Positions 43,400 through 53,525 of a stretch of DNA of 64,000 nucleotides are shown here, piece after piece (within the stretch, counting starts at the first letter, position 1; each line of letters opens with the position of its first letter). The translations under genes and the position numbers were made by a program. A model generated the notes under the pieces. That model made no database searches and was not told the origin of the DNA. It was given only the letters and a program-made list of their open reading frames with translations. The DNA is from Planctomycetota bacterium (GTDB lineage: Bacteria; Planctomycetota; UBA1135; UBA2386), in the NCBI GenBank assembly GCA_965223545.1, contig OZ245006.1:2208001-2272000 (forward strand), given 5' to 3'.

Positions 43400-45277
43400 T
43401 CAGAACAAGCCCGCCAACACTTCCAGGCGCGTGCGGGCACGAACCAGAGAGCTCTCGTCCCGAGCCACCTCGGTCGCAGTGATGAAGCCGCGCTTGGCCA
43501 GCACGCGGCTGCGATCGAGCTGCTTCTCCAGCACCTCGACCTCGGACTTCGCGACCTCCAGCTCGGCGCGCGCGATGCCGCGCAGCGCCTCGAACTTGTC
43601 GCGCGCGACTTGGTAGTCGATCTCGGCGACGTGCACCTCCTCCGAGCCGATCACGCCCGAGGCCGAACGCGCATTGACGAGCGCCAAGCGCGCCTTCGCC
43701 AGCTCGGTCGCACCGCGCGATTCGATCGTGCGCGTCACGAGATCGATGAGATCGGAAGCGACCGCTCCGCGACCGATCCCGACGTTGGTCACCGGGTCTC
43801 GCCGGCCGCCGGATCCGGGTCGCGCGACGAGCGGATCCCGAGCCGCTGGCTCCTCAGCCACGGGCTGAAACGCGGCAACCCTGTCTGCCGGCGCCACTGC
43901 CGTTCCCGGCGCCTCGAGCTCCGCCTGTCGCTGCAACAGCCGCTCGAGCTCGGCATGCAGCACGCGAATCCGCTCGCCCAGCTCGAGGTACTCGACACTC
44001 TCGTCGTACGTGACCTCGGGCTTCGACTCGGCCATCGGCTCGGCCTCGATCGGACGAACGCTCGGCTGCTCAGCGCTCGGCCGTCGCTCGGGATCCTGCG
44101 CGACCGCCGGCCGCACACCGAAAGTCGCCGCCATCGCCAGGACCAGCGCCGTGGTGCCGACCACCGCGCCCCATCGTTCGCGCACCGAGCACGGCGCGTC
44201 CATCGAGTTCTTCCGTCGAGCCAACATGTCCATCCTCTTCAACAGCTGCGAGCGCGCGCCGGCCATCGGCGCCACGCCCTGGAGACCATTCGTGCAGCGC
44301 GCCGGCCGCTCGCAGAGGGCGAGCAACGCGCGCAGATACGCCGCGGTGCCGACGCGGGCAGCCGCGCCACGGTCGGCGCGCTGCTCGCTGGCGAGTTCGG
44401 CCCGCCGGCGCAACACCCAGAACAGCGGGTGCGCGTAGAGCGCGGGGGCCGCTGCCGCAAACAGCGCACGGCCGCGCGGATCGCGTTGCCGCGCATGCTG
44501 GAGTTCGTGCCAGAGCACGGGCCAGAGCACCGCGCGCATTTCCGGCTCGCAAAGGGCGCGGGGGAGCAGCACGACCGGCCGGCGCCAGCCACAACACAAC
44601 GGCGAGCGCAGACCGGCGACGACGCGCACTCGAACGTCGGCGATCCACGGGGCAGCGCGCTGCGCGGCACCCAGCTCGCCGACGAGCCACTCCGGCGGAG
44701 CGATCGCCGCCCGCCGCAGCCGCGCCAAGCGCCACACGCCGAGCAAGCCGAACAGCACCCAACCGAGACTGCCCAAGAGCAGCGCGGCGACGAGCCAGCG
44801 TGCACCTCCGCCGTTCGTGGCGGGGCTTGAGGGCCGCATTCCGAGCAAGTCGAGCGGCTCGGCGAGGTGGTGACGCGGCGCGGGAGCCGACGCGGCGTCC
44901 ACGACGGCTGCACGCGGCACTCCGGGCGGGACTGCCGGCTGCTCGGCAACCTCGATTGCCGTGGTCGACGGTGGCGGTCTCCGTGGCGATTCGAGGGGCT
45001 CGAGGGGCTCGGCCCCGAGCACGGGCTGCCCGGCCGCGGTTGTCCAGTCATTCCAAAGCCGGGGCAGCGGGAGGGTCGCGAGCAGCGCCCAGAGCAGCGA
45101 CGCCGCCACGGCCAGCTCGGCGGCGTGCTGTCTGCGCTCGGCACGCCGACAGCGCAGGCCGACCAACCAACCGACCGCGAGCAGCGCAGTGACGCCGCCA
45201 CCCCACAACAGCGCGTGCTCCAACACCCAATCCACGGGCAGTCCCAGCACGGCTCCGGCCCCGTCGTCGCCGATCAC
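43400..45277 (-). CDS. BlaR1/MecR1-like M56 metallopeptidase signal transducer
   Basis: TM segments, HELQH..QRD, HPLFW, E..AD; GTG overlaps the blaI-like stop. Confidence 0.85.
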   Translation of the reverse strand: MIGDDGAGAVLGLPVDWVLEHALLWGGGVTALLAVGWLVGLRCRRAERRQHAAELAVAASLLWALLATLPLPRLWNDWTTAAGQPVLGAEPLEPLESPRRPPPSTTAIEVAEQPAVPPGVPRAAVVDAASAPAPRHHLAEPLDLLGMRPSSPATNGGGARWLVAALLLGSLGWVLFGLLGVWRLARLRRAAIAPPEWLVGELGAAQRAAPWIADVRVRVVAGLRSPLCCGWRRPVVLLPRALCEPEMRAVLWPVLWHELQHARQRDPRGRALFAAAAPALYAHPLFWVLRRRAELASEQRADRGAAARVGTAAYLRALLALCERPARCTNGLQGVAPMAGARSQLLKRMDMLARRKNSMDAPCSVRERWGAVVGTTALVLAMAATFGVRPAVAQDPERRPSAEQPSVRPIEAEPMAESKPEVTYDESVEYLELGERIRVLHAELERLLQRQAELEAPGTAVAPADRVAAFQPVAEEPAARDPLVARPGSGGRRDPVTNVGIGRGAVASDLIDLVTRTIESRGATELAKARLALVNARSASGVIGSEEVHVAEIDYQVARDKFEALRGIARAELEVAKSEVEVLEKQLDRSRVLAKRGFITATEVARDESSLVRARTRLEVLAGLF

Positions 45278-45669
45278 CGCGATCGCCTCCGCCCACGGCG
45301 CTCGACCTCGTCGAGCAGCGCCCGCATCTTCTGCAGCTCGCCGCTGTTTGGCCGCCTCGCCTGCAGCGCGCTCGCCACCAGCTGATCCAATGCACCGTCG
45401 AAGACCCGCTCGAGCACGCCGCGCACCACGTGGCGGCTGGTCAATTCGCGCGGCCTCACAGCGCGATAGACGAACGAGCGGCCAACGGTGCGGTGCACGA
45501 CCAAGCCCTTCTCCTCCATCGTGCGCAAGAAAGCCTGCACCGTGTTCTGCACGATGGGCAGGTCGTCGCGCAGCGCTTCGTAGACCTGGCGCACGGTGCT
45601 TTCGCCGCGCTCCCACAGCACTTTGAGAATGTCGAGCTCGCGCTCGGTCGGCTCGGGCAGTTCGACCAT
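45274..45669 (-). CDS. BlaI/MecI/CopY family repressor
   Basis: TERELDILKVLWERGESTVRQV, TVQAFLRTMEEKGLV, FDG. Confidence 0.93.
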   Translation of the reverse strand: MVELPEPTERELDILKVLWERGESTVRQVYEALRDDLPIVQNTVQAFLRTMEEKGLVVHRTVGRSFVYRAVRPRELTSRHVVRGVLERVFDGALDQLVASALQARRPNSGELQKMRALLDEVERRGRRRSR

Positions 45670-45679
45670 ATAGCTGACC

Positions 45680-45707
45680 ATTCTAAACTTAGCTTTCTAA
45701 GCGTCAA
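45680..45707 (-). promoter_or_regulatory. Sigma70 promoter with overlapping palindromic operator for the blaI-blaR operon
   Basis: Minus strand TTGACG-16 nt-TAGAAT; palindromes CTAA-AC-TTAG (45683-45692) and CTTAG-CTTT-CTAAG (45688-45701). Confidence 0.65.
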
Positions 45708-45806: not shown

Positions 45807-47057
45807 GTGACCGAGACCACACCGCTCTCCGCCGATCCCTCACTCGCCGACCTCGATCCGACGCTCGCCGAATGGCTGGGCAAGGAGGACGCGCGCCAGG
45901 CCGGCACGCTCACCCTGATCGCGTCCGAGAACCACACCTCGCGTGCCGTGCGCGCCGCAGTCGCCAGTCGGCTGACCGACAAGTACGCCGAGGGGTATCC
46001 GGGCGCCCGCTATTACGGCGGTTGTGAAATCGCGGATGAGATCGAGTCCCTGGCGCGTCGCCGCGCCCTGGCGCTGTTCCCCGGAGCCGAGCACGCGAAC
46101 GTGCAGCCGCACTCCGGCACCTCGGCCAACCTCGCCGTGCTCGCCGCGCTGGCCGGCCCCGGTGGCAAGATCGTCGGCATGGCGCTCAACGCGGGCGGGC
46201 ACCTCAGCCACGGCCATCCGGTGAGCCACACCGGCAAGCTGTTCGACCCGACGCAATACACCGTCGACCCCGACACCGGCCTGATCGACTACGACGCCGT
46301 GCGGTCCCTGGTGAAGGAGCATCGCCCCGCCGTCTTGATCGCCGGCGGCAGCTCCTACCCGCGAACGATCGATTACGAGCGCATGGCCTCGATCGCTCAC
46401 CAGCACGAGGCGCTGCTGCTCGCCGACATCGCCCACCCGGCCGGTCTGATCGCCACCGGCTGCATGCCTTCGCCGCTGCCGCACGCCGACGTGGTCACCA
46501 TGACCACCCACAAGACCCTGCGCGGCCCCCGCGGCGGGATGATCCTCTGCCGCGAGGAGCTCGCCAAGAAGATCGACCGCTCGACGTTCCCGGGCGCACA
46601 GGGTGGGCCGCTGATGCACCAAATCGCGGCCAAGGCGGTCGCTTTCCAGGAGGCCGCGACACCCGCATTCCGCGACTACCAAGCGCAGGTGCAGGAGAAC
46701 GCCGCACGCCTGGCAAAGACTCTCCTGGGCCACGGACTCGCCATCGTCACCGGCGGCACCGACAGCCACATCGTCCTGGTCGACCTACGCGGCACAGACG
46801 CGACCGGCGCCGAAATCGAAGCCAAGGCCCGCGCCGCCGACATCGTGCTCAACAAGAACATGATCCCCGGCGACCCCCGCTCGCCCCGCGAAACCAGCGG
46901 CATCCGCATCGGCACCGCCGCAGTCACCTCCAGAGGCATGACCGCCGAACAGATGGACGAAATCGCCAGCGTCCTCGCCGGCCTAGTCCGCGGCGAAGCA
47001 CCAGAGTCCTTCAAACCGACCATCGCCACCCTCTGCAGTCGCTTCCCACTACCGTAA
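45807..47057 (+). CDS. glyA: Serine hydroxymethyltransferase
   Basis: LIASEN, KYAEGYPGARYYGGC, GGHLSHG, TTHKTLRGPRGG, QGGPLMH, GIRIGT. Confidence 0.97.
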   Translation: MTETTPLSADPSLADLDPTLAEWLGKEDARQAGTLTLIASENHTSRAVRAAVASRLTDKYAEGYPGARYYGGCEIADEIESLARRRALALFPGAEHANVQPHSGTSANLAVLAALAGPGGKIVGMALNAGGHLSHGHPVSHTGKLFDPTQYTVDPDTGLIDYDAVRSLVKEHRPAVLIAGGSSYPRTIDYERMASIAHQHEALLLADIAHPAGLIATGCMPSPLPHADVVTMTTHKTLRGPRGGMILCREELAKKIDRSTFPGAQGGPLMHQIAAKAVAFQEAATPAFRDYQAQVQENAARLAKTLLGHGLAIVTGGTDSHIVLVDLRGTDATGAEIEAKARAADIVLNKNMIPGDPRSPRETSGIRIGTAAVTSRGMTAEQMDEIASVLAGLVRGEAPESFKPTIATLCSRFPLP

Positions 47058-47373
47058 GAAGCCCCCCCACCCCAGACGACTCAACCGCGGCATCAAGCCC
47101 GGCCGGATCGTCGCAGAACCGTTGCGAACCAGCCTCAGCTCCGGAGCTCGAGGTGGTGAGAGCCCTGGGCGTGCCGCATGCGCGCTCCCCCGGCCTCTGG
47201 ATCCAGAGCTGCGGGCGGCGGTCCTGTCGTGTTGCGTGGCTACGCCTGGATAGAAGGTCGCGCATTCAAGATCGCGCGGTTCGTCGCGGAGTGATGCGCA
47301 CTCGCCTCAGCTCCGTCACCGTCGGCAGCGGTCGCACCCCGTGCCTCGTCTTGGACCGCTGTCGGCGGTGATG

Positions 47374-49406
47374 TTGCGCCTGGCATGGGCGCAGAGTTGA
47401 AGATGAAAGTTCTTTATGGATCCGTACTGGAGGAAACCATGAGTCGAAGGCAGCTGCACGAGGCAGAAAGGGGAGCCGTGTGCCGTCCGAGAGGGCGGTG
47501 CGCGGTGTTGATCCGGGATGCCAGAACAGGACGGACACCGTGCCGTGCTGTTCCCGCGAGGTCGTGTGGGATGGAAGCCCTAGACGCAGCGCAGCACCGA
47601 GCGAAAGCGAAGTTCCGTAAGGCTCTCGAGGTCTGGGTCAGCGTGCCATCCAACGTGACGCCCGATATCCAGTCGCGACCTCGGAGTACTGGAACCGGCG
47701 GCGGCGCGAAACTCTGCGTTCTTACCCAGGGAGATCTCTGTGTGTCCGCTTCGAGCGGTAGGTGGGGAGGAGGCAACGACGACCCACCAAGGCATGCAGA
47801 GAAGTCGGATCACCCCGTAGTAGTGATGAAGCCGGGTAATGCCGGTGGAGCGAAGGGGGTGACAGGATGAGAAAGCCGAAACCACGGCAACTGCAGTTCG
47901 CTTTCGCCGAGAGCCCGCAAGGGGACGGCGTGGCCGGAAGGGCAGACGAATCTGCCACGAAGTCCACGTCGGTGCCTACGACGGATTGCAGCCATCGATC
48001 GGAATCGGCTCCGCCGCCAGCGGACGGCTACTGCCATCTGCTGGAGCTGGTCGCGGAGCAGGGCAACCTGCGAAGCGCACTGGCACATGTCGTAAGCAAG
48101 AAGGGCGCCCCGGGCGTCGACGGACAGACGGTGTCAGAGGTCAAGCGTCATGCGAAACACCTGCTCCCGAAACTCCGCGATGCTCTGCTCATGGAGACCT
48201 ACGCGCCCGGCGATATTCGTCGGGTGTGGATCCCGAAGCCCAGTGGTGGGCAGCGGGGTCTCGGGATTCCAACCGTGATCGACCGCTGGGTCCAACAGGC
48301 CGTGCGCCAGATTCTGGAGCCGATCTACGACCCGACGTTCCACGACAGCAGCCACGGCTTCCGGCCGAGGCGGGGAGCCCACACAGCGATCGCCGAAGCA
48401 GCGGGTTACGTGAAGCAGGGTCGGCGGTACACGGTGGACATCGATTTGGAGAAGTTCTTCGACCGTGTCCATCACCAACGCCTCCTGGACCGGCTGGCTC
48501 AGAAGGTGAAGGACCGTCGGGTGCTGCGGATCATCCGCCTGATGCTGAAAGCGAACGTGGTTCTTCCAGATGGCACCCGCGTCATCACGGAAGAAGGAAC
48601 GCCCCAGGGCGGCCCGCTATCACCTCTGCTGTCCAACATCGTCCTGGACGAACTGGACTGGGAGTTGGAACGACGCGGGTTGCGTTTTGTGCGCTACGCC
48701 GACGACTGCAATATCTACGTCGGTAGCGAGCGCTCAGGACACCGGGTCATGGCTTCGATTCGCAGGTTCATCGAACGTCGCGTGCGACTGAAAGTGAACG
48801 AAGCGAAGAGTTCCGTCGACCTGGCCCATCGCCGGCACTTCCTCGGGTTTCGCGTAGGCGCAACTCGAAAGGGCTGGCTGACGGTGCAGTTGTCCCGTCG
48901 CACTCTGGATCGCATCGACGCCCGAATCCGTGAGCTTACGCCGCGGTCCTGGGGTGGTCGGCTGTCCTGGTGCATCGAACGACTGAACCGTTACCTCCGT
49001 GGTTGGATCGGCTACTTCAAGCTGATCACGAAGGCCGCGTGGCGGACCTTGCGGAATCTCGATGGCCATATTCGACGACGCCTGCGGGCGATCATCATTC
49101 GGCAGAAGAAGAGACCGCGATACCTCTTCCGAGACCTTGTCGCCCGTGGGTGCAGCTGGCAGTCGGCTGCACGCACCGCGTTTGGCCGGCGTGGCACGTG
49201 GTGGCAGAGCAACTCGGGAGCGATCAAACGCGCTTATCCCAATCAGTGGTTTGCTGAGCGGCTGGTGTCGCTTTCCAAGCTCTGGGACGAGCGCCGCTAC
49301 GACTGGCGGCCCCTTTGGGGGATACCGTCCTGAAGAGCCGGATGTGTGACCCACAAGTCCGGTTCTGTGAGAGCTGCGGGGGGGCAACCCCCCGCGGCTA
49401 CTCGGC
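47374..49406 (+). mobile_element. Group II intron, class C (IIC)-like, copy 1 (2033 nt)
   Basis: 5' TTGCGCCTGGCATGGGCGCAG; domain V GAGCCGGATGTG..CACAAGTCCGGTTC; domain VI ending CTACTCGGC; boundaries fixed by the empty site GGTGATG^GTGCTG at 49663/49664. Confidence 0.93.
47867..49333 (+). CDS. ltrA: Group II intron reverse transcriptase/maturase without endonuclease domain
   Basis: GAPGVDG, RGLGIPTVIDR, SHGFRP, DLEKFFD, GTPQGGPLSPLLSNI, RYADD, RGWIGYF; no HNH. Confidence 0.96.
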   Translation: MRKPKPRQLQFAFAESPQGDGVAGRADESATKSTSVPTTDCSHRSESAPPPADGYCHLLELVAEQGNLRSALAHVVSKKGAPGVDGQTVSEVKRHAKHLLPKLRDALLMETYAPGDIRRVWIPKPSGGQRGLGIPTVIDRWVQQAVRQILEPIYDPTFHDSSHGFRPRRGAHTAIAEAAGYVKQGRRYTVDIDLEKFFDRVHHQRLLDRLAQKVKDRRVLRIIRLMLKANVVLPDGTRVITEEGTPQGGPLSPLLSNIVLDELDWELERRGLRFVRYADDCNIYVGSERSGHRVMASIRRFIERRVRLKVNEAKSSVDLAHRRHFLGFRVGATRKGWLTVQLSRRTLDRIDARIRELTPRSWGGRLSWCIERLNRYLRGWIGYFKLITKAAWRTLRNLDGHIRRRLRAIIIRQKKRPRYLFRDLVARGCSWQSAARTAFGRRGTWWQSNSGAIKRAYPNQWFAERLVSLSKLWDERRYDWRPLWGIPS

Positions 49407-49781
49407 GTGCTGAGGCGAGCCTTCAGCTCTGGAGTCGAGGTGGTGGGAGCCCTGGGGCGTGCCGCATGCGCGCTCCCTCGGCCTCTGGATCGAGAGCTGC
49501 GGGCGGCGGTCCCGGTCGCGTTGCGTGGCTGCGCCGTTGGATAGAAGGTCGCGCATCAAGATCGCGCGGTTTGTCGCGGAGTGATGCGCACTCGCCTCAG
49601 CTCCGTCACCGTCGGCAGCGGTCGCACCCCGTGCCTCGTCCTGGACCGCTGTCGGCGGTGATGGTGCTGAGGCGAGCCTTCAGCTCTGGAGCTCGAGGTG
49701 GTGGGAGCCCTGGGGCGTGCCGCGTGCGCGCTCCCTCGGCCTCTGGATCGAGAGCTGCGGGGCCGCCCGCAACTCCGCCAC

Positions 49782-51814
49782 GCCGAGTAGCCGCGGGGGG
49801 TTGCCCCCCCGCAGCTCTCACAGAACCGGACTTGTGGGTCACACATCCGGCTCTTCAGGACGGTATCCCCCAAAGGGGCCGCCAGTCGTAACGGCGCTCG
49901 TCCCAGAGCTTGGAAAGCGACACCAGCCGCTCAGCAAACCACTGATTGGGATAAGCGCGTTTGATCGCTCCCGAGTTGCTCTGCCACCACGTGCCACGCC
50001 GGCCAAACGCGGTGCGTGCAGCCGACTGCCAGCTGCACCCACGGGCGACAAGGTCTCGGAAGAGGTATCGCGGTCTCTTCTTCTGCCGAATGATGATCGC
50101 CCGCAGGCGTCGTCGAATATGGCCATCGAGATTCCGCAAGGTCCGCCACGCGGCCTTCGTGATCAGCTTGAAGTAGCCGATCCAACCACGGAGGTAACGG
50201 TTCAGTCGTTCGATGCACCAGGACAGCCGACCACCCCAGGACCGCGGCGTAAGCTCACGGATTCGGGCGTCGATGCGATCCAGAGTGCGACGGGACAACT
50301 GCACCGTCAGCCAGCCCTTTCGAGTTGCGCCTACGCGAAACCCGAGGAAGTGCCGGCGATGGGCCAGGTCGACGGAACTCTTCGCTTCGTTCACTTTCAG
50401 TCGCACGCGACGTTCGATGAACCTGCGAATCGAAGCCATGACCCGGTGTCCTGAGCGCTCGCTACCGACGTAGATATTGCAGTCGTCGGCGTAGCGCACA
50501 AAACGCAACCCGCGTCGTTCCAACTCCCAGTCCAGTTCGTCCAGGACGATGTTGGACAGCAGAGGTGATAGCGGGCCGCCCTGGGGCGTTCCTTCTTCCG
50601 TGATGACGCGGGTGCCATCTGGAAGAACCACGTTCGCTTTCAGCATCAGGCGGATGATCCGCAGCACCCGACGGTCCTTCACCTTCTGAGCCAGCCGGTC
50701 CAGGAGGCGTTGGTGATGGACACGGTCGAAGAACTTCTCCAAATCGATGTCCACCGTGTACCGCCGACCCTGCTTCACGTAACCCGCTGCTTCGGCGATC
50801 GCTGTGTGGGCTCCCCGCCTCGGCCGGAAGCCGTGGCTGCTGTCGTGGAACGTCGGGTCGTAGATCGGCTCCAGAATCTGGCGCACGGCCTGTTGGACCC
50901 AGCGGTCGATCACGGTTGGAATCCCGAGACCCCGCTGCCCACCACTGGGCTTCGGGATCCACACCCGACGAATATCGCCGGGCGCGTAGGTCTCCATGAG
51001 CAGAGCATCGCGGAGTTTCGGGAGCAGGTGTTTCGCATGACGCTTGACCTCTGACACCGTCTGTCCGTCGACGCCCGGGGCGCCCTTCTTGCTTACGACA
51101 TGTGCCAGTGCGCTTCGCAGGTTGCCCTGCTCCGCGACCAGCTCCAGCAGATGGCAGTAGCCGTCCGCTGGCGGTGGAGCCGATTCCGATCGATGGCTGC
51201 AATCCGTCGTAGGCACCGACGTGGACTTCGTGGCAGATTCGTCTGCCCTTCCGGCCACGCCGTCCCCTTGCGGGCTCTCGGCGAAAGCGAACTGCAGTTG
51301 CCGTGGTTTCGGCTTTCTCATCCTGTCACCCCCTTCGCTCCACCGGCATTACCCGGCTTCATCACTACTACGGGGTGATCCGACTTCGCTGCATGCCTTG
51401 GTGGGTCGTCGTTGCCTCCTCCCCACCTACCGCTCGAAGCGGACACACAGAGATCTCCCTGGGTAAGAACGCAGAGTTTCGCGCCGCCGCCGGTTCCAGT
51501 ACTCCGAGGTCGCGACTGGATATCGGGCGTCACGTTGGATGGCACGCTGACCCAGACCTCGAGAGCCTTACGGAACTTCGCTTTCGCTCGGTGCTGCGCT
51601 GCGTCTAGGGCTTCCATCCCACACGACCTCGCGGGAACAGCACGGCACGGTGTCCGTCCTGTTCTGGCATCCCGGATCAACACCGCGCACCGCCCTCTCG
51701 GACGGCACACGGCTCCCCTTTCTGCCTCGTGCAGCTGCCTTCGACTCATGGTTTCCTCCAGTACGGATCCATAAAGAACTTTCATCTTCAACTCTGCGCC
51801 CATGCCAGGCGCAA
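49782..51814 (-). mobile_element. Group II intron, class C (IIC)-like, copy 2 (2033 nt, inverted)
   Basis: Reverse complement of copy 1 with about 3 substitutions seen; minus-strand exons GTCGATG^GTGGCGG. Confidence 0.93.
49855..51321 (-). CDS. ltrA: Group II intron reverse transcriptase/maturase (same protein as copy 1)
   Basis: 488-aa translation identical to 47867..49333. Confidence 0.96.
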   Translation of the reverse strand: MRKPKPRQLQFAFAESPQGDGVAGRADESATKSTSVPTTDCSHRSESAPPPADGYCHLLELVAEQGNLRSALAHVVSKKGAPGVDGQTVSEVKRHAKHLLPKLRDALLMETYAPGDIRRVWIPKPSGGQRGLGIPTVIDRWVQQAVRQILEPIYDPTFHDSSHGFRPRRGAHTAIAEAAGYVKQGRRYTVDIDLEKFFDRVHHQRLLDRLAQKVKDRRVLRIIRLMLKANVVLPDGTRVITEEGTPQGGPLSPLLSNIVLDELDWELERRGLRFVRYADDCNIYVGSERSGHRVMASIRRFIERRVRLKVNEAKSSVDLAHRRHFLGFRVGATRKGWLTVQLSRRTLDRIDARIRELTPRSWGGRLSWCIERLNRYLRGWIGYFKLITKAAWRTLRNLDGHIRRRLRAIIIRQKKRPRYLFRDLVARGCSWQSAARTAFGRRGTWWQSNSGAIKRAYPNQWFAERLVSLSKLWDERRYDWRPLWGIPS

Positions 51815-52093
51815 CATCGACGCCGGTCCAAGACGAGGCACAAGGTGCGACCGACGCCGATGGTGACGGAGCTGCGGGCGGCGGTCCTGTTCGTGGTGCG
51901 TAGATGTGCCGCTTGGAGTGAAGGTCGCGGACTCAAGAGAGCGGGTTTCGTCACGGAGTGGTGCGCACTCGCCTCAGTTCTGGAGTCGAGATTGTTGGGA
52001 GCAGGGTAGCGTGCGATTCGCCCGGCCGCTTTCGCAGATTCCTTGTCGGATTCTTGCATGTTGACTTCCACTTGAGTAAGGTTGCTAATTCAA

Positions 52094-52792
52094 ATGACGA
52101 GCAAGGCAGTTGGATCCCGGCGCGGTGGCCGGCGCCGTGGGGTGGTGCAGGGTGAGCTGCCGTTTCGGCAGTGGGGTGGGGCTCGGGAGGGGGCTGGTCG
52201 GCCCAAGGTGAGTGATGAGACGGTGCCGCACTTGGCGCGGGGGGCGTTGGTGGCGCGGTATCCGTTGCACTTGACGGTGCGGTTGTGTCGGGGGTTGCCC
52301 GGTCTGCGGAATGCGCGGACGTACTGGATGTTGGTGGAGCGGATCCGGGCGGGGTGTGGGCGGTTCGGGTTTCGGTTGGTGGAGTTCTCGGTGCAGCGTG
52401 ATCACTTGCACCTCTTGGTCGAGGCGAAGGATCGGGAGGCGTTGACGCGGGGAATGACCGGGCTGTTGGTGCGGATGGCGCGGGGGTTGAACAAGCTGTG
52501 GGGGCGCTCGGGGCGGGTGTTTGCCGAGCGGTTTCACGAGCGGGTGCTGCGCTCGCCGACGGAGGTGCGGCGGGCGTTGGTGTATGTGCTGCAGAATGCT
52601 TGGCACCACCGGCAGCGGCCGCGGCAGCTGATCGACGTCTACTCGTCTGGGCCTTGGTTCGACGGGTGGCGCGAGGGGGTGGAGCTGTCGGAGCCGGTGG
52701 CGCGGCCGACGGTGCGGGCGCGGACCTGGCTGCTGAAGGGCGGGTGGCGGCGGTCGCGGGGGCGGTTGGACTTCCGCGAGCGGCCGGCTTGA
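52094..52792 (+). CDS. Y1/HUH tyrosine transposase (IS200-like TnpA / REP-associated RAYT-like)
   Basis: PLHLTVR, HUH motif DHLHLLVE, VF.ERFH.R.L, catalytic YVLQN; no tnpB follows. Confidence 0.88.
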   Translation: MTSKAVGSRRGGRRRGVVQGELPFRQWGGAREGAGRPKVSDETVPHLARGALVARYPLHLTVRLCRGLPGLRNARTYWMLVERIRAGCGRFGFRLVEFSVQRDHLHLLVEAKDREALTRGMTGLLVRMARGLNKLWGRSGRVFAERFHERVLRSPTEVRRALVYVLQNAWHHRQRPRQLIDVYSSGPWFDGWREGVELSEPVARPTVRARTWLLKGGWRRSRGRLDFRERPA

Positions 52793-52856
52793 GGGCGCGC
52801 GGCGGTGTGGGGCCGCGCGGGGAAGCGAGAAAAACGAGTGCGACTCCGTACTTTCG

Positions 52857-53525
52857 CTAGTCGACCCAGCGGTAGCCGACGCGGTGTACGGTGAGGAGGT
52901 GTGCGGGTTGGGTGGGGTCGCTCTCGATCTTCTTGCGGAGTTGGAAGACGTGGGTGTCGACCGTGCGGGTGGTGGGCATGGCGTGGTGGCCCCAGACTTC
53001 GCGCAGGAGGTCGGCACGGGCGAAGGTGCGGCCGGCGTTGCGCATCAGGAAGCCGAGGAGCTCGGCTTCCTTCGCGGACAGCGCGTGCTCGCGACCGGCG
53101 CGCCGGACGGTGTGGCCGGCGAGGTCGATCTCGGCGCTGCCGGCGGTCACCGGACCGGGCGCGGCACCGGTGCGGCGCAGCACGGCTTCGATGCGGGCTT
53201 CGAGCTCGCGCACGCTGAATGGCTTGACCAAATAGTCGTCCGCCCCGCTGCGCAGGCCGAGCACGCGCTGGTCTTCCTCGCCGCGGGCGGTCAACACCAC
53301 CACCGGCGTCCGGTCACCGCGGCGGCGCAGCGCGCGCAGCACGGTCACTCCGTCGCCGTCGGGTAGCGCCAGATCCAACAGCACGACGGTGTAGGACGCG
53401 GCACCCAGACGCGCTTCGGCCTCGGCCACCGTCGCGGCGGCGTCGACCAGCGCGCCGTGCGCCAAAAAGTAATCGACCAGGCTGTCGCGGATGCCGGCCT
53501 CGTCCTCGACGACCAACAACCGCAT
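52857..53525 (-). CDS. OmpR-family response regulator
   Basis: LLVVEDE, LLDLALPDGDG, GADDYLVKPF, RTVDTHV..LRKK, GYR. Confidence 0.95.
   Translation of the reverse strand: MRLLVVEDEAGIRDSLVDYFLAHGALVDAAATVAEAEARLGAASYTVVLLDLALPDGDGVTVLRALRRRGDRTPVVVLTARGEEDQRVLGLRSGADDYLVKPFSVRELEARIEAVLRRTGAAPGPVTAGSAEIDLAGHTVRRAGREHALSAKEAELLGFLMRNAGRTFARADLLREVWGHHAMPTTRTVDTHVFQLRKKIESDPTQPAHLLTVHRVGYRWVD

Follow-up and report, generated by a model that had tools for sequence, protein, structure and literature searches.

The stretch of DNA analyzed here (the window, 64,000 nt) comes from a Planctomycetota genome (G000; 8.1 Mb, 70% GC, 91% complete) and carries two copies of a group II intron, each inserted into a hairpin module, X, of a repeat array that lies upstream of tnpA, a gene for a Y1/HUH transposase. 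We think it likely that the intron spreads by endonuclease-free retrohoming into a single-stranded GC-rich hairpin that carries a 4-nt intron-binding site 1 (IBS1) and an IBS3, and that X is the best local target, probably built and multiplied by TnpA. For this we draw on the anatomy of the locus, the positions of the intron copies, their choice of strand, the covariation between exon-binding sites (EBS) and IBS, the membership of the intron in its branch and the missing T-tails, all of which were observed directly; from there we infer every enzymatic step.

Intron copies in hairpin X

G000 holds 14 full copies of the intron, 99.5 to 100% identical to one another, and 13 of them lie within X (11 in arrays adjacent to tnpA and 2 in an X at the end of an ISL3 element). 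Since there are only 26 X modules in 8.1 Mb, this placement is not due to chance. The original prediction had tied the intron to X from the two window copies, and the other copies do not lie mostly elsewhere: the claim holds across the genome. Twenty-three of the 26 modules stand beside tnpA, and 13 are occupied, always on the same X strand. The 11 array introns are all at most 750 nt upstream of tnpA and are spread over 8 of the 13 tnpA loci. The strand that is used folds better in 26 of 26 modules, by a mean of 5.9 kcal/mol, and the opposite strand likewise offers GRTG^R in the 3' arm in all 26. Every one of the 14 5' flanks ends in GRTG (GATG in 9, GGTG in 5), the +1 base after the site is G in 12 copies and A in 2, and a T-tail was found at none of the 14 sites. 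There are five distinct insertion sites within X and one further site outside it. With an intron-free array as the query, matches across the genome fell into 18 clusters (13 at tnpA, 3 at ISL3, 1 solo and 1 weak match in coding sequence), a distribution that led us to reject X as a dispersed repetitive extragenic palindromic (REP) family.

In the window, the first intron (2033 nt; 47374..49406, plus strand) interrupts an X of type 1, of which the 5' arm, the loop and the 3' arm as far as the insertion site occupy 47301..47373 (plus strand; IBS1, GATG, at 47370-47373); the remainder (49407-49419) is followed by modules A2 and B2 (together 49407..49590, plus strand). The second intron (also 2033 nt; 49782..51814, minus strand; reverse transcriptase [RT] gene at 49855-51321) is a sequence variant that differs from the first at 3 positions. 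It sits in an inverted X of type 2 that runs as far as the insertion site at 51815..51882 (minus strand; IBS1, GATG, at 51818-51815; repeats I2 and I3) and has its 3' foot at 49762-49781 (minus strand), at the end of the segment that holds module A3 (49677..49781, plus strand). The intron boundaries (TTGCG at the start, GGC at the end) are fixed, with no shift possible. Between the two introns lies an empty X of type 1 (49591..49676, plus strand; families D3 and D15, inverted repeat I7), its site at 49663/49664 unused. Modules A1 (~47144-47214) and B1 (~47215-47300) precede the first X (47123..47300, plus strand; repeat families D1, D2 and D6 and the module map), and B3, followed by a truncated A module, closes the array (51888..52003, plus strand; families D2 and D9 and the module map). 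The original prediction had described two 2033-nt introns at GATG^GTG in the 3' arm of X, an uninterrupted X between them and an array that ends ~90 bp ahead of a Y1/HUH gene without tnpB. This window observation is confirmed: coordinates, Rfam and RT matches agree, the empty X is present, and tnpA (Y1_Tnp, 25.8 bits), which starts ~90 bp past the last array module, has a convergent response-regulator gene and no tnpB as its downstream neighbor.

We rejected a duplication of one insertion as the origin of the two window introns, because they are different sequence variants at different sites. The hairpins that they occupy are different variants of X, in opposite orientation, and the distance between site and loop is 20 nt in the first hairpin but 14 nt in the second. 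The window X of type 1 matches its empty neighbor, flanking X sequence keeps the variant of its own array, and intron variants do not track loci. Since the introns are near-identical, their tnpA neighbors share 92.1 to 97.4% identity and the window copies are themselves different variants, insertion postdates the divergence of the tnpA copies. These sequence comparisons argue for the arrival of the introns by repeated insertion and not by passive copying.

There are three ISL3 copies in G000 (C1 ~2608355, 3672952 and 5061452; Pfam ISL3), two with the intron and one empty, and each carries ~130 bp homologous to the tail of module A plus an X of type 2 between its left end and the start of its transposase gene. 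The two introns lie more than 450 kb from any tnpA; their flanks are identical, and they may represent a single event. One ISL3 transposase is shortened to 346 aa. At C1 ~6577993, an A+X-like unit stands alone between genes, with neither tnpA nor ISL3 adjoining. Two introns (C1 1355549 and 6127148) carry one additional base shortly before the RT gene ends, so that its last codons are altered, and G000 also carries a second, unrelated group II intron RT (C1 4530834-4532100; 37% identity, FADD) with a domain V/VI downstream. Among contigs from four sequencing runs, none was found to span an empty element site.

The AGC branch of class C and its targets

Both introns matched the Rfam model of D1-D4-3 (RF02001) at 73 bits and that of domain V/VI (RF00029) at 39.2 bits, against a cut-off of 40. 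Each intron encodes an RT/maturase of 488 aa above the TIGR04416 cut-off; that of the first intron (47867..49333, plus strand; YADD) matched TIGR04416 at 373 bits (cut-off 300), and its best solved-structure relative was the RT of GsI-IIC; no endonuclease domain was found in it, Pfam giving RVT_1 and GIIM only. Domain V (49335..49365, plus strand; 31 nt in the RF00029 alignment) has a shortened distal stem, with a three-base gap relative to the Rfam model, and its triad (49336-49338) is AGC, unlike the CGC that defines IIC introns (PMC1702495). Thus, the class C intron that had been predicted is one in its protein, which is of class C type, but its ribozyme is not canonical IIC. The intron ends are noncanonical, the first base being U and the penultimate base G; these two positions covary among the branch introns described below (U with G in 6/6, G with A in 51/51), and UUGCG..GU ends are likewise reported for one IIB intron (PMC7923331). 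The AGGAA motif is present near the 5' end (in the branch, 11 of 58 have AGGAA and most have AGGGA), and the bulged A of domain VI was read from the sequence at 49400 (plus strand).

A covariation scan of 58 branch introns, covering exon positions -1 to -5 and +1, located the sites that pair with the target. Intron positions 274 to 277 (CATC; 47647..47650, plus strand, in intron 1) were Watson-Crick complementary to exon positions -1 to -4 in 53, 55, 51 and 39 of the 58 introns (30, 17, 16 and 24 expected), position 316 (C at 47689) was complementary to exon +1 in 38 of 58 (22 expected), and there was no clear covariation at -5. Because they covary with the exons, these positions are real EBS1 and EBS3, and the short IBS1 of the original prediction stands, EBS1 CATC pairing with exon GRTG. 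EBS1 varies freely across the branch, and so the constant feature of the target would be its structure.

To place the intron, we gathered relatives from genome contigs (the best 80 of 593), metagenome contigs (the best 80 of 594), phylum searches and plasmids, and ran FastTree on 192 RT segments obtained by tblastn, with a midpoint root and without named reference introns. The query fell in a branch of 95 rows (support 99), in which the triad is AGC in 87, CGC in none and uncalled in 8. The sister of this branch is a CGC branch of 86 rows (support 92), and the two group together with support 100. Three rows come from an unpublished genome (G452), which was left out of the target counts. Two members of the branch, from Novosphingobium (CP017077) and Rhizobium (CP018231), are typed C in the supplement of PMC8919778, which puts the branch inside published class C, and we therefore rejected its assignment to g1/class G or to Miura's unclassified groups. 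No RT relative above 51% identity was found in 60 related genomes.

Targets were compared for the 57 of 102 AGC loci that had both ends and enough flank and for 47 CGC loci (48 of 87, minus one tandem intron). At least four T in the last 8 exon bases were present at 3 of 57 AGC targets versus 39 of 47 CGC targets, and among targets of at least 58% GC the figures were 3/52 versus 6/10. A mini-hairpin, SCG[ACT]AGS, occurred at 29 of 57 AGC targets (6.7 expected from shuffles) versus 2 of 47 CGC targets (1.8 expected), and TTGT was absent from all 57. AGC introns are also ~160 nt longer (median, 2052 versus 1888 nt), and both the triad and the kind of target agree with the RT tree. On the sequence of these flanks, the AGC branch seems to aim at GC-rich palindromes and not at the usual terminators. 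That the target is a hairpin and not a terminator, as had been proposed from the window, agrees with the scarcity of T-tails and with the lack of any terminator-like site at window 46900-53000. Branch introns on Sinorhizobium, Novosphingobium and Rhizobium plasmids (L262-L265), from cultured Alphaproteobacteria, all lie at GTAG^C in cruciform palindromes and have EBS1 CTAC.

With the class C/IIC introns B.h.I1 and GsI-IIC, the window intron shares an RT near that of GsI-IIC, the lack of an endonuclease domain, a short domain V, AGGAA, a 4-nt EBS1, an EBS3, a hairpin before the site and a high copy number; it differs from them in its AGC triad, U1, penultimate G, ~160 nt of extra length, missing T-tail and site inside the 3' arm of the stem. 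IIC-attC introns (S.ma.I2 type) likewise use an imperfect stem-loop, inserting within it or immediately behind it and on a single strand (PMC7923331), but they do so at attC with TTGT/T, whereas the intron described here uses GRTG/G in X and its branch has no fixed IBS1; the tree contained no attC intron. Insertion sequences (ISs) that target REP elements (Tobes and Pareja 2006, PMC1525189) also place a mobile element inside palindromic repeats, but the invader here is a retroelement, with 13 of 14 copies in one repeat module. A P. putida group II intron has 2 of 9 copies at REPs (PMC1525189). Class C targets on record are terminators and attC sites (PMC4424553, PMC7306698, PMC8919778, PMC12584367), and reviews divide the targets of bacterial group II introns into three kinds, namely homing sites, terminators and attC (PMC4424553). 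The divergent class C open reading frames in PMC3552965 could belong to the AGC branch. In the consulted parts of PMC5894124 and PMC10011109 there is nothing on intron targets, and neither a class C branch with an AGC triad nor the targeting of REP-like hairpins by such a branch turned up in the literature searched, which comprised openly readable papers and the supplements of one paper.

The tnpA family and its tie to the intron

The tnpA gene (52094..52792, plus strand) encodes 232 aa with an HLH motif at 104-106 and Tyr164. In an alignment of 108 family members, H104, H106 and Tyr164 are conserved and YxxxN is present, but the NP(L/V)(R/K)xG motif of the REP-associated tyrosine transposases (RAYTs; PMC2817692) is not found, the tnpA consensus reading YVLxNARxHG. 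A profile of the family gave E=0.009 to Escherichia coli TnpA-REP (4ER8) versus 0.9 to ISDra2 TnpA. A single-sequence fold was poor (pLDDT 47) and was replaced by an alignment-based model (pLDDT 86), for which 4ER8 ranked first in Foldseek; a single-sequence search of the PDB with tnpA gave no match. The window TnpA scored 35.3 bits against NF047646 (cut-off 80), and all 108 members match that model weakly. Judged by profile and modeled fold, TnpA is RAYT-like and not a formal RAYT.

The 13 tnpA loci of G000 comprise 12 full copies, 92.1 to 97.4% identical in DNA, and 1 fragment. Their variant codons number 98 synonymous and 47 nonsynonymous, and 26 of these 47 fall within codons 1 to 20. The copies are under purifying selection. 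Their left ends are ragged, and there is no conserved right-end sequence past the stop. Copies of IS200/IS605 subclass 1.1 are 99.4% identical (PMC6006769) and RAYTs are single-copy (10.1101/119735), so that 12 copies at this divergence are neither fresh IS copies nor a single-copy RAYT. TnpA shares with RAYT/TnpA-REP proteins (Nunvar 2010; Bertels 2017; Quentin 2018) the HUH and Y1 fold, the absence of tnpB, a conserved Thr, YxxxN and an adjacent intergenic array of palindromes in alternating orientation; it differs in its 12 full copies versus about one, its missing NP motif, its 35 versus 80 bits against NF047646, the one-sided hairpins of G000 and the 26 copies of X (23 beside tnpA) in place of more than 100 dispersed ones. 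With IS200/IS605 elements (Quentin subclass 1.1), it has in common the multiple copies, the Y1 transposase and subterminal hairpins, but its copies are not near-identical, it has YxxxN and not YxxxQ, it is 232 aa long and its left ends are ragged. Of the original reading of the locus as a RAYT with REP or bacterial interspersed mosaic element (BIME) arrays, the fold nearest to TnpA-REP and the adjacent array therefore stand, but 12 copies and a fragment, with 23 of 26 X beside tnpA and not hundreds dispersed, do not fit it.

Members of the family were found in 21 of 61 genomes in the set of relatives (up to 47 matches) and in 15 of 401 in a sample of the phylum. At 23 of the 49 loci of the family that were scanned, the motif [AT]TCAA[GA] occurs no more than 260 nt ahead of tnpA (on the reverse strand at 3 of 49), and of the 30 matches in G000 to a longer form, AAGGT..TCAA, 26 are near tnpA, all 26 on the tnpA strand. 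In the window, the longer form precedes the ATG of tnpA and recurs within module B. A promoter-like region (TTGACT ... TAAGGT; 52061..52093, plus strand), with TCAA abutting the ATG, was read by eye; a promoter scan gave 0 sites ahead of tnpA. TCAA beside tnpA resembles the right-end cleavage site of IS608, and by this analogy it may mark a cleavage site. In three genomes (G017, G040 and G048), tnpA occurs in head-to-tail tandem, 1.1 to 1.7 kb apart, and in G040 and G048 TCAAG lies upstream and ~40 nt downstream of tnpA in direct orientation.

Across the branch, only 1 of 108 loci (L177) has this tnpA family nearby, many of the contigs being short; there, the intron lies in an X-like hairpin just past tnpA. 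When flanking frames were scanned at 43 loci (the two longest per side, with no control set), 10 had a match to a transposase or IS helper (IS4/5, IS3, IS21, IS91, ISL3 and one Y1). An X-like hairpin that follows a DDE transposase holds an intron with 75% RT identity (L141), and an intron with 88% RT identity (L140) lies in another long palindrome that ends in GATG. The genome G448 has 11 RT matches, and one of the targets is a dispersed 31-copy palindrome (control 0); neither this tnpA nor Y1_Tnp gave a match in G448, for which completeness is not given, and G392 likewise carries branch introns without a match to this tnpA. Conversely, G017 has 33 tnpA matches, X brackets tnpA there, with 24 of the 26 exact X no more than 1 kb away, and no RT match was found in this genome, which is 73% complete. 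The array stands on one side of tnpA in G000 and on both in G017.

Among 60 relatives, only G017 has X in numbers, by a noisy two-mismatch pattern that gives up to 24 matches elsewhere, and we therefore rejected the idea that X generally accompanies the tnpA family. Uninterrupted stems of at least 14 bp occur at 15 of 56 tnpA family loci versus 1 of 50 control windows. Exact X gave single matches in 3 of 400 phylum genomes (7 candidates per genome scored), two of which are real X-like hairpins without a tnpA match. In two genomes without a match to this tnpA (L337 in G127, L338 in G437), single X-like hairpins have an A-like tail; L338 lies among IS remnants, with a match to the IS66 C terminus and, by eye, IS21-like end repeats. 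The expectation that the arrays would co-occur with the transposase family was thus not supported, since among 20 other relatives with tnpA only G017 has X in numbers, and the proposal of an intron lineage specialized on transposase-kept hairpins survives locally, where 13 of 14 copies are in X, and not for the branch, with 1 of 108 loci near tnpA and G448 without Y1_Tnp. The tie of the intron to this tnpA is local opportunism, not a lineage-wide dependence.

The host genes that flank tnpA loci show a shift in synonymous codon use. In glyA, the upstream host gene of the window (serine hydroxymethyltransferase; 45807..47057, plus strand; Pfam SHMT, 476 bits), C+A at four-fold sites is 0.92 in the last 80 codons versus 0.60 further up. 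It is 0.84 to 0.92 in the last 80 codons of 6 of 12 upstream genes and at least 0.80 in 2 of 7 downstream genes, against 0.46 to 0.60 deeper in the same biased genes and a background mean of 0.52 (99th percentile, 0.80; 3469 frames); a suitable frame was lacking at 1 upstream and 5 downstream loci. Within tnpA, 116 of the 145 four-fold sites are G. The C/A-rich end of the host gene lies at window 46800-47057, while 52094-53100 (tnpA and the far flank) is G/T-rich. A C/A bias is also seen at C1 1355414, 1633205, 2432303, 5691536 and 6129588 in G000, and in G017 the flanks have, by eye, the reversed polarity. Nick-primed re-replication by a RAYT has been proposed (PMC2817692) and, by analogy, would fit as an explanation of the C/A shift. 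A description of GT-rich gene ends for RAYTs was not found by term searches of PMC2817692. On its far side, tnpA is followed by the convergent host response-regulator gene (52857..53525, minus strand; Pfam Response_reg and Trans_reg_C), and upstream of glyA (window 43400-45681) lie a BlaI-family repressor gene (Penicillinase_R) and then, by eye, one for a long BlaR/M56-like membrane protein.

Proposed mechanism, alternatives and significance

We propose that the intron acts as a retroelement without an endonuclease, one that belongs to the AGC-triad branch of class C described above. The intron ribonucleoprotein would read a long GC-rich hairpin extruded from single-stranded DNA, together with IBS1 GRTG (EBS1 CAUC) and IBS3 G (EBS3 C), and would reverse splice into the 3' arm of the hairpin, as IIC-attC introns do at attC, and not after a terminator. 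X forms BIME-like arrays of alternating orientation upstream of the multicopy RAYT-like tnpA, and is also carried in the ISL3 left end. With X as the best hairpin in G000, the recent expansion of the intron there would have run through repeated independent insertions. TnpA would build and amplify the arrays, and the intron would gain a harmless, renewable niche; it is plausible that TnpA keeps supplying targets.

In favor of this reading, among predicted hairpins that reach at least -30 kcal/mol, the GRTG^G site is occupied in 11 of 39 cases in arrays versus 0 of 132 elsewhere. Several observations weigh against it. Most of the 132 outside control hairpins look coding and imperfect, and insertions there may be purged. 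A second family of near-perfect long palindromes (~5 loci, intron-free C1 coordinates 1402855, 2734700, 5064986, 6378887 and 6950875), none of which is occupied, has A at +1 and thus a weaker IBS3, which makes its five empty loci a limited control. One intron copy interrupts, in antisense, a gene of sulfatase-like type, where its hairpin is weak, and the replication-strand bias is weak, with 10 of 14 copies oriented as for insertion into the lagging-strand template. As for the branch, pairing across the site is weak (18 of 57 AGC targets, 12.6 expected; 4 of 47 CGC targets, 7.7 expected), 26 of 57 AGC targets miss a folding z of -2 and 31 fall below it, the targets are related and not independent (7 of 57 are from G448), and the tree comes from FastTree on tblastn segments without named references.

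Alternatively, the behavior could be generic to class C, any stable hairpin followed by GRTG serving as a target, with X the commonest such noncoding site in a GC-rich genome poor in T-tailed terminators and survival after insertion also shaping the outcome. IIC introns do sit after terminators "or other inverted repeats" (PMC1702495), branch members are cataloged as class C, EBS1 varies freely and one copy is ectopic. However, we judge this unlikely, given that T-tails differ at matched GC content (CGC 6/10, AGC 3/52), that triad and target type follow the RT tree and that the choice of strand in X is strict. Passive spread, in which gene conversion between arrays or transposition of the tnpA element multiplied one or two original insertions, would account for the homology of the arrays, for five copies of one site type and for the identical flanks of the two ISL3 introns, but the diversity of sites (five in X and one outside) largely refutes it, X flanks keep their own array variant, and the introns are near-identical whereas tnpA copies are 3 to 8% apart; we regard it as very improbable.

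The transposase could also have a larger part. In an obligate three-part system, the intron lineage would be specialized on RAYT-like hairpins and would need TnpA to renew them, and perhaps to nick or unwind X so as to provide single-stranded DNA or a primer. This would agree with the 11 of 14 introns at 8 of 13 tnpA loci, the link of X to tnpA in both G000 and G017, the repeat of the intron-tnpA association at L177 and the C/A-biased ends of 6 of the 12 upstream genes, which suggest strand-specific DNA processing. It is nevertheless doubtful, because only 1 of 108 branch loci (many on short contigs) is near tnpA and 1 of 43 flank sets has a Y1 match, branch introns occur in G448 and G392, where this tnpA has no match (nor, in G448, has Y1_Tnp), two introns lie in an ISL3 X more than 450 kb from any tnpA, and G017 (73% complete) has 33 tnpA matches yet no RT match. 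A further elaboration, which we consider a long shot, would make the AGC branch a distinct, early-diverging class C lineage for GC-rich palindromes of HUH-processed elements, with its spread in G000 coupled to the transposase: TnpA would nick at TCAA in the array, strand displacement would extrude X as a single-stranded hairpin, the resulting 3'-OH would prime reverse transcription of the intron, and the same process would amplify the arrays and leave the C/A halo in host genes.

Relative to the original prediction, then, the intron finding is broader and the link to the transposase is narrower. The window locus points to a further structure-guided target mode, that of GC-rich REP-like palindromes and IS-end hairpins, which sorts with a protein branch and the AGC triad. 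Recognition of hairpins is thereby uncoupled from CGC, long taken as a hallmark of IIC introns, and should AGC prove ancestral, the branch would offer a model for the origin of class C targeting. With 26 near-identical hairpins, half of them occupied and on one strand only, G000 is a ready test set. The tnpA family, for its part, falls outside the published RAYT and IS200 patterns, with many copies that are 3 to 8% apart and under purifying selection, and the directional synonymous bias beside it makes local mutagenic re-replication primed by a RAYT nick (PMC2817692) testable.

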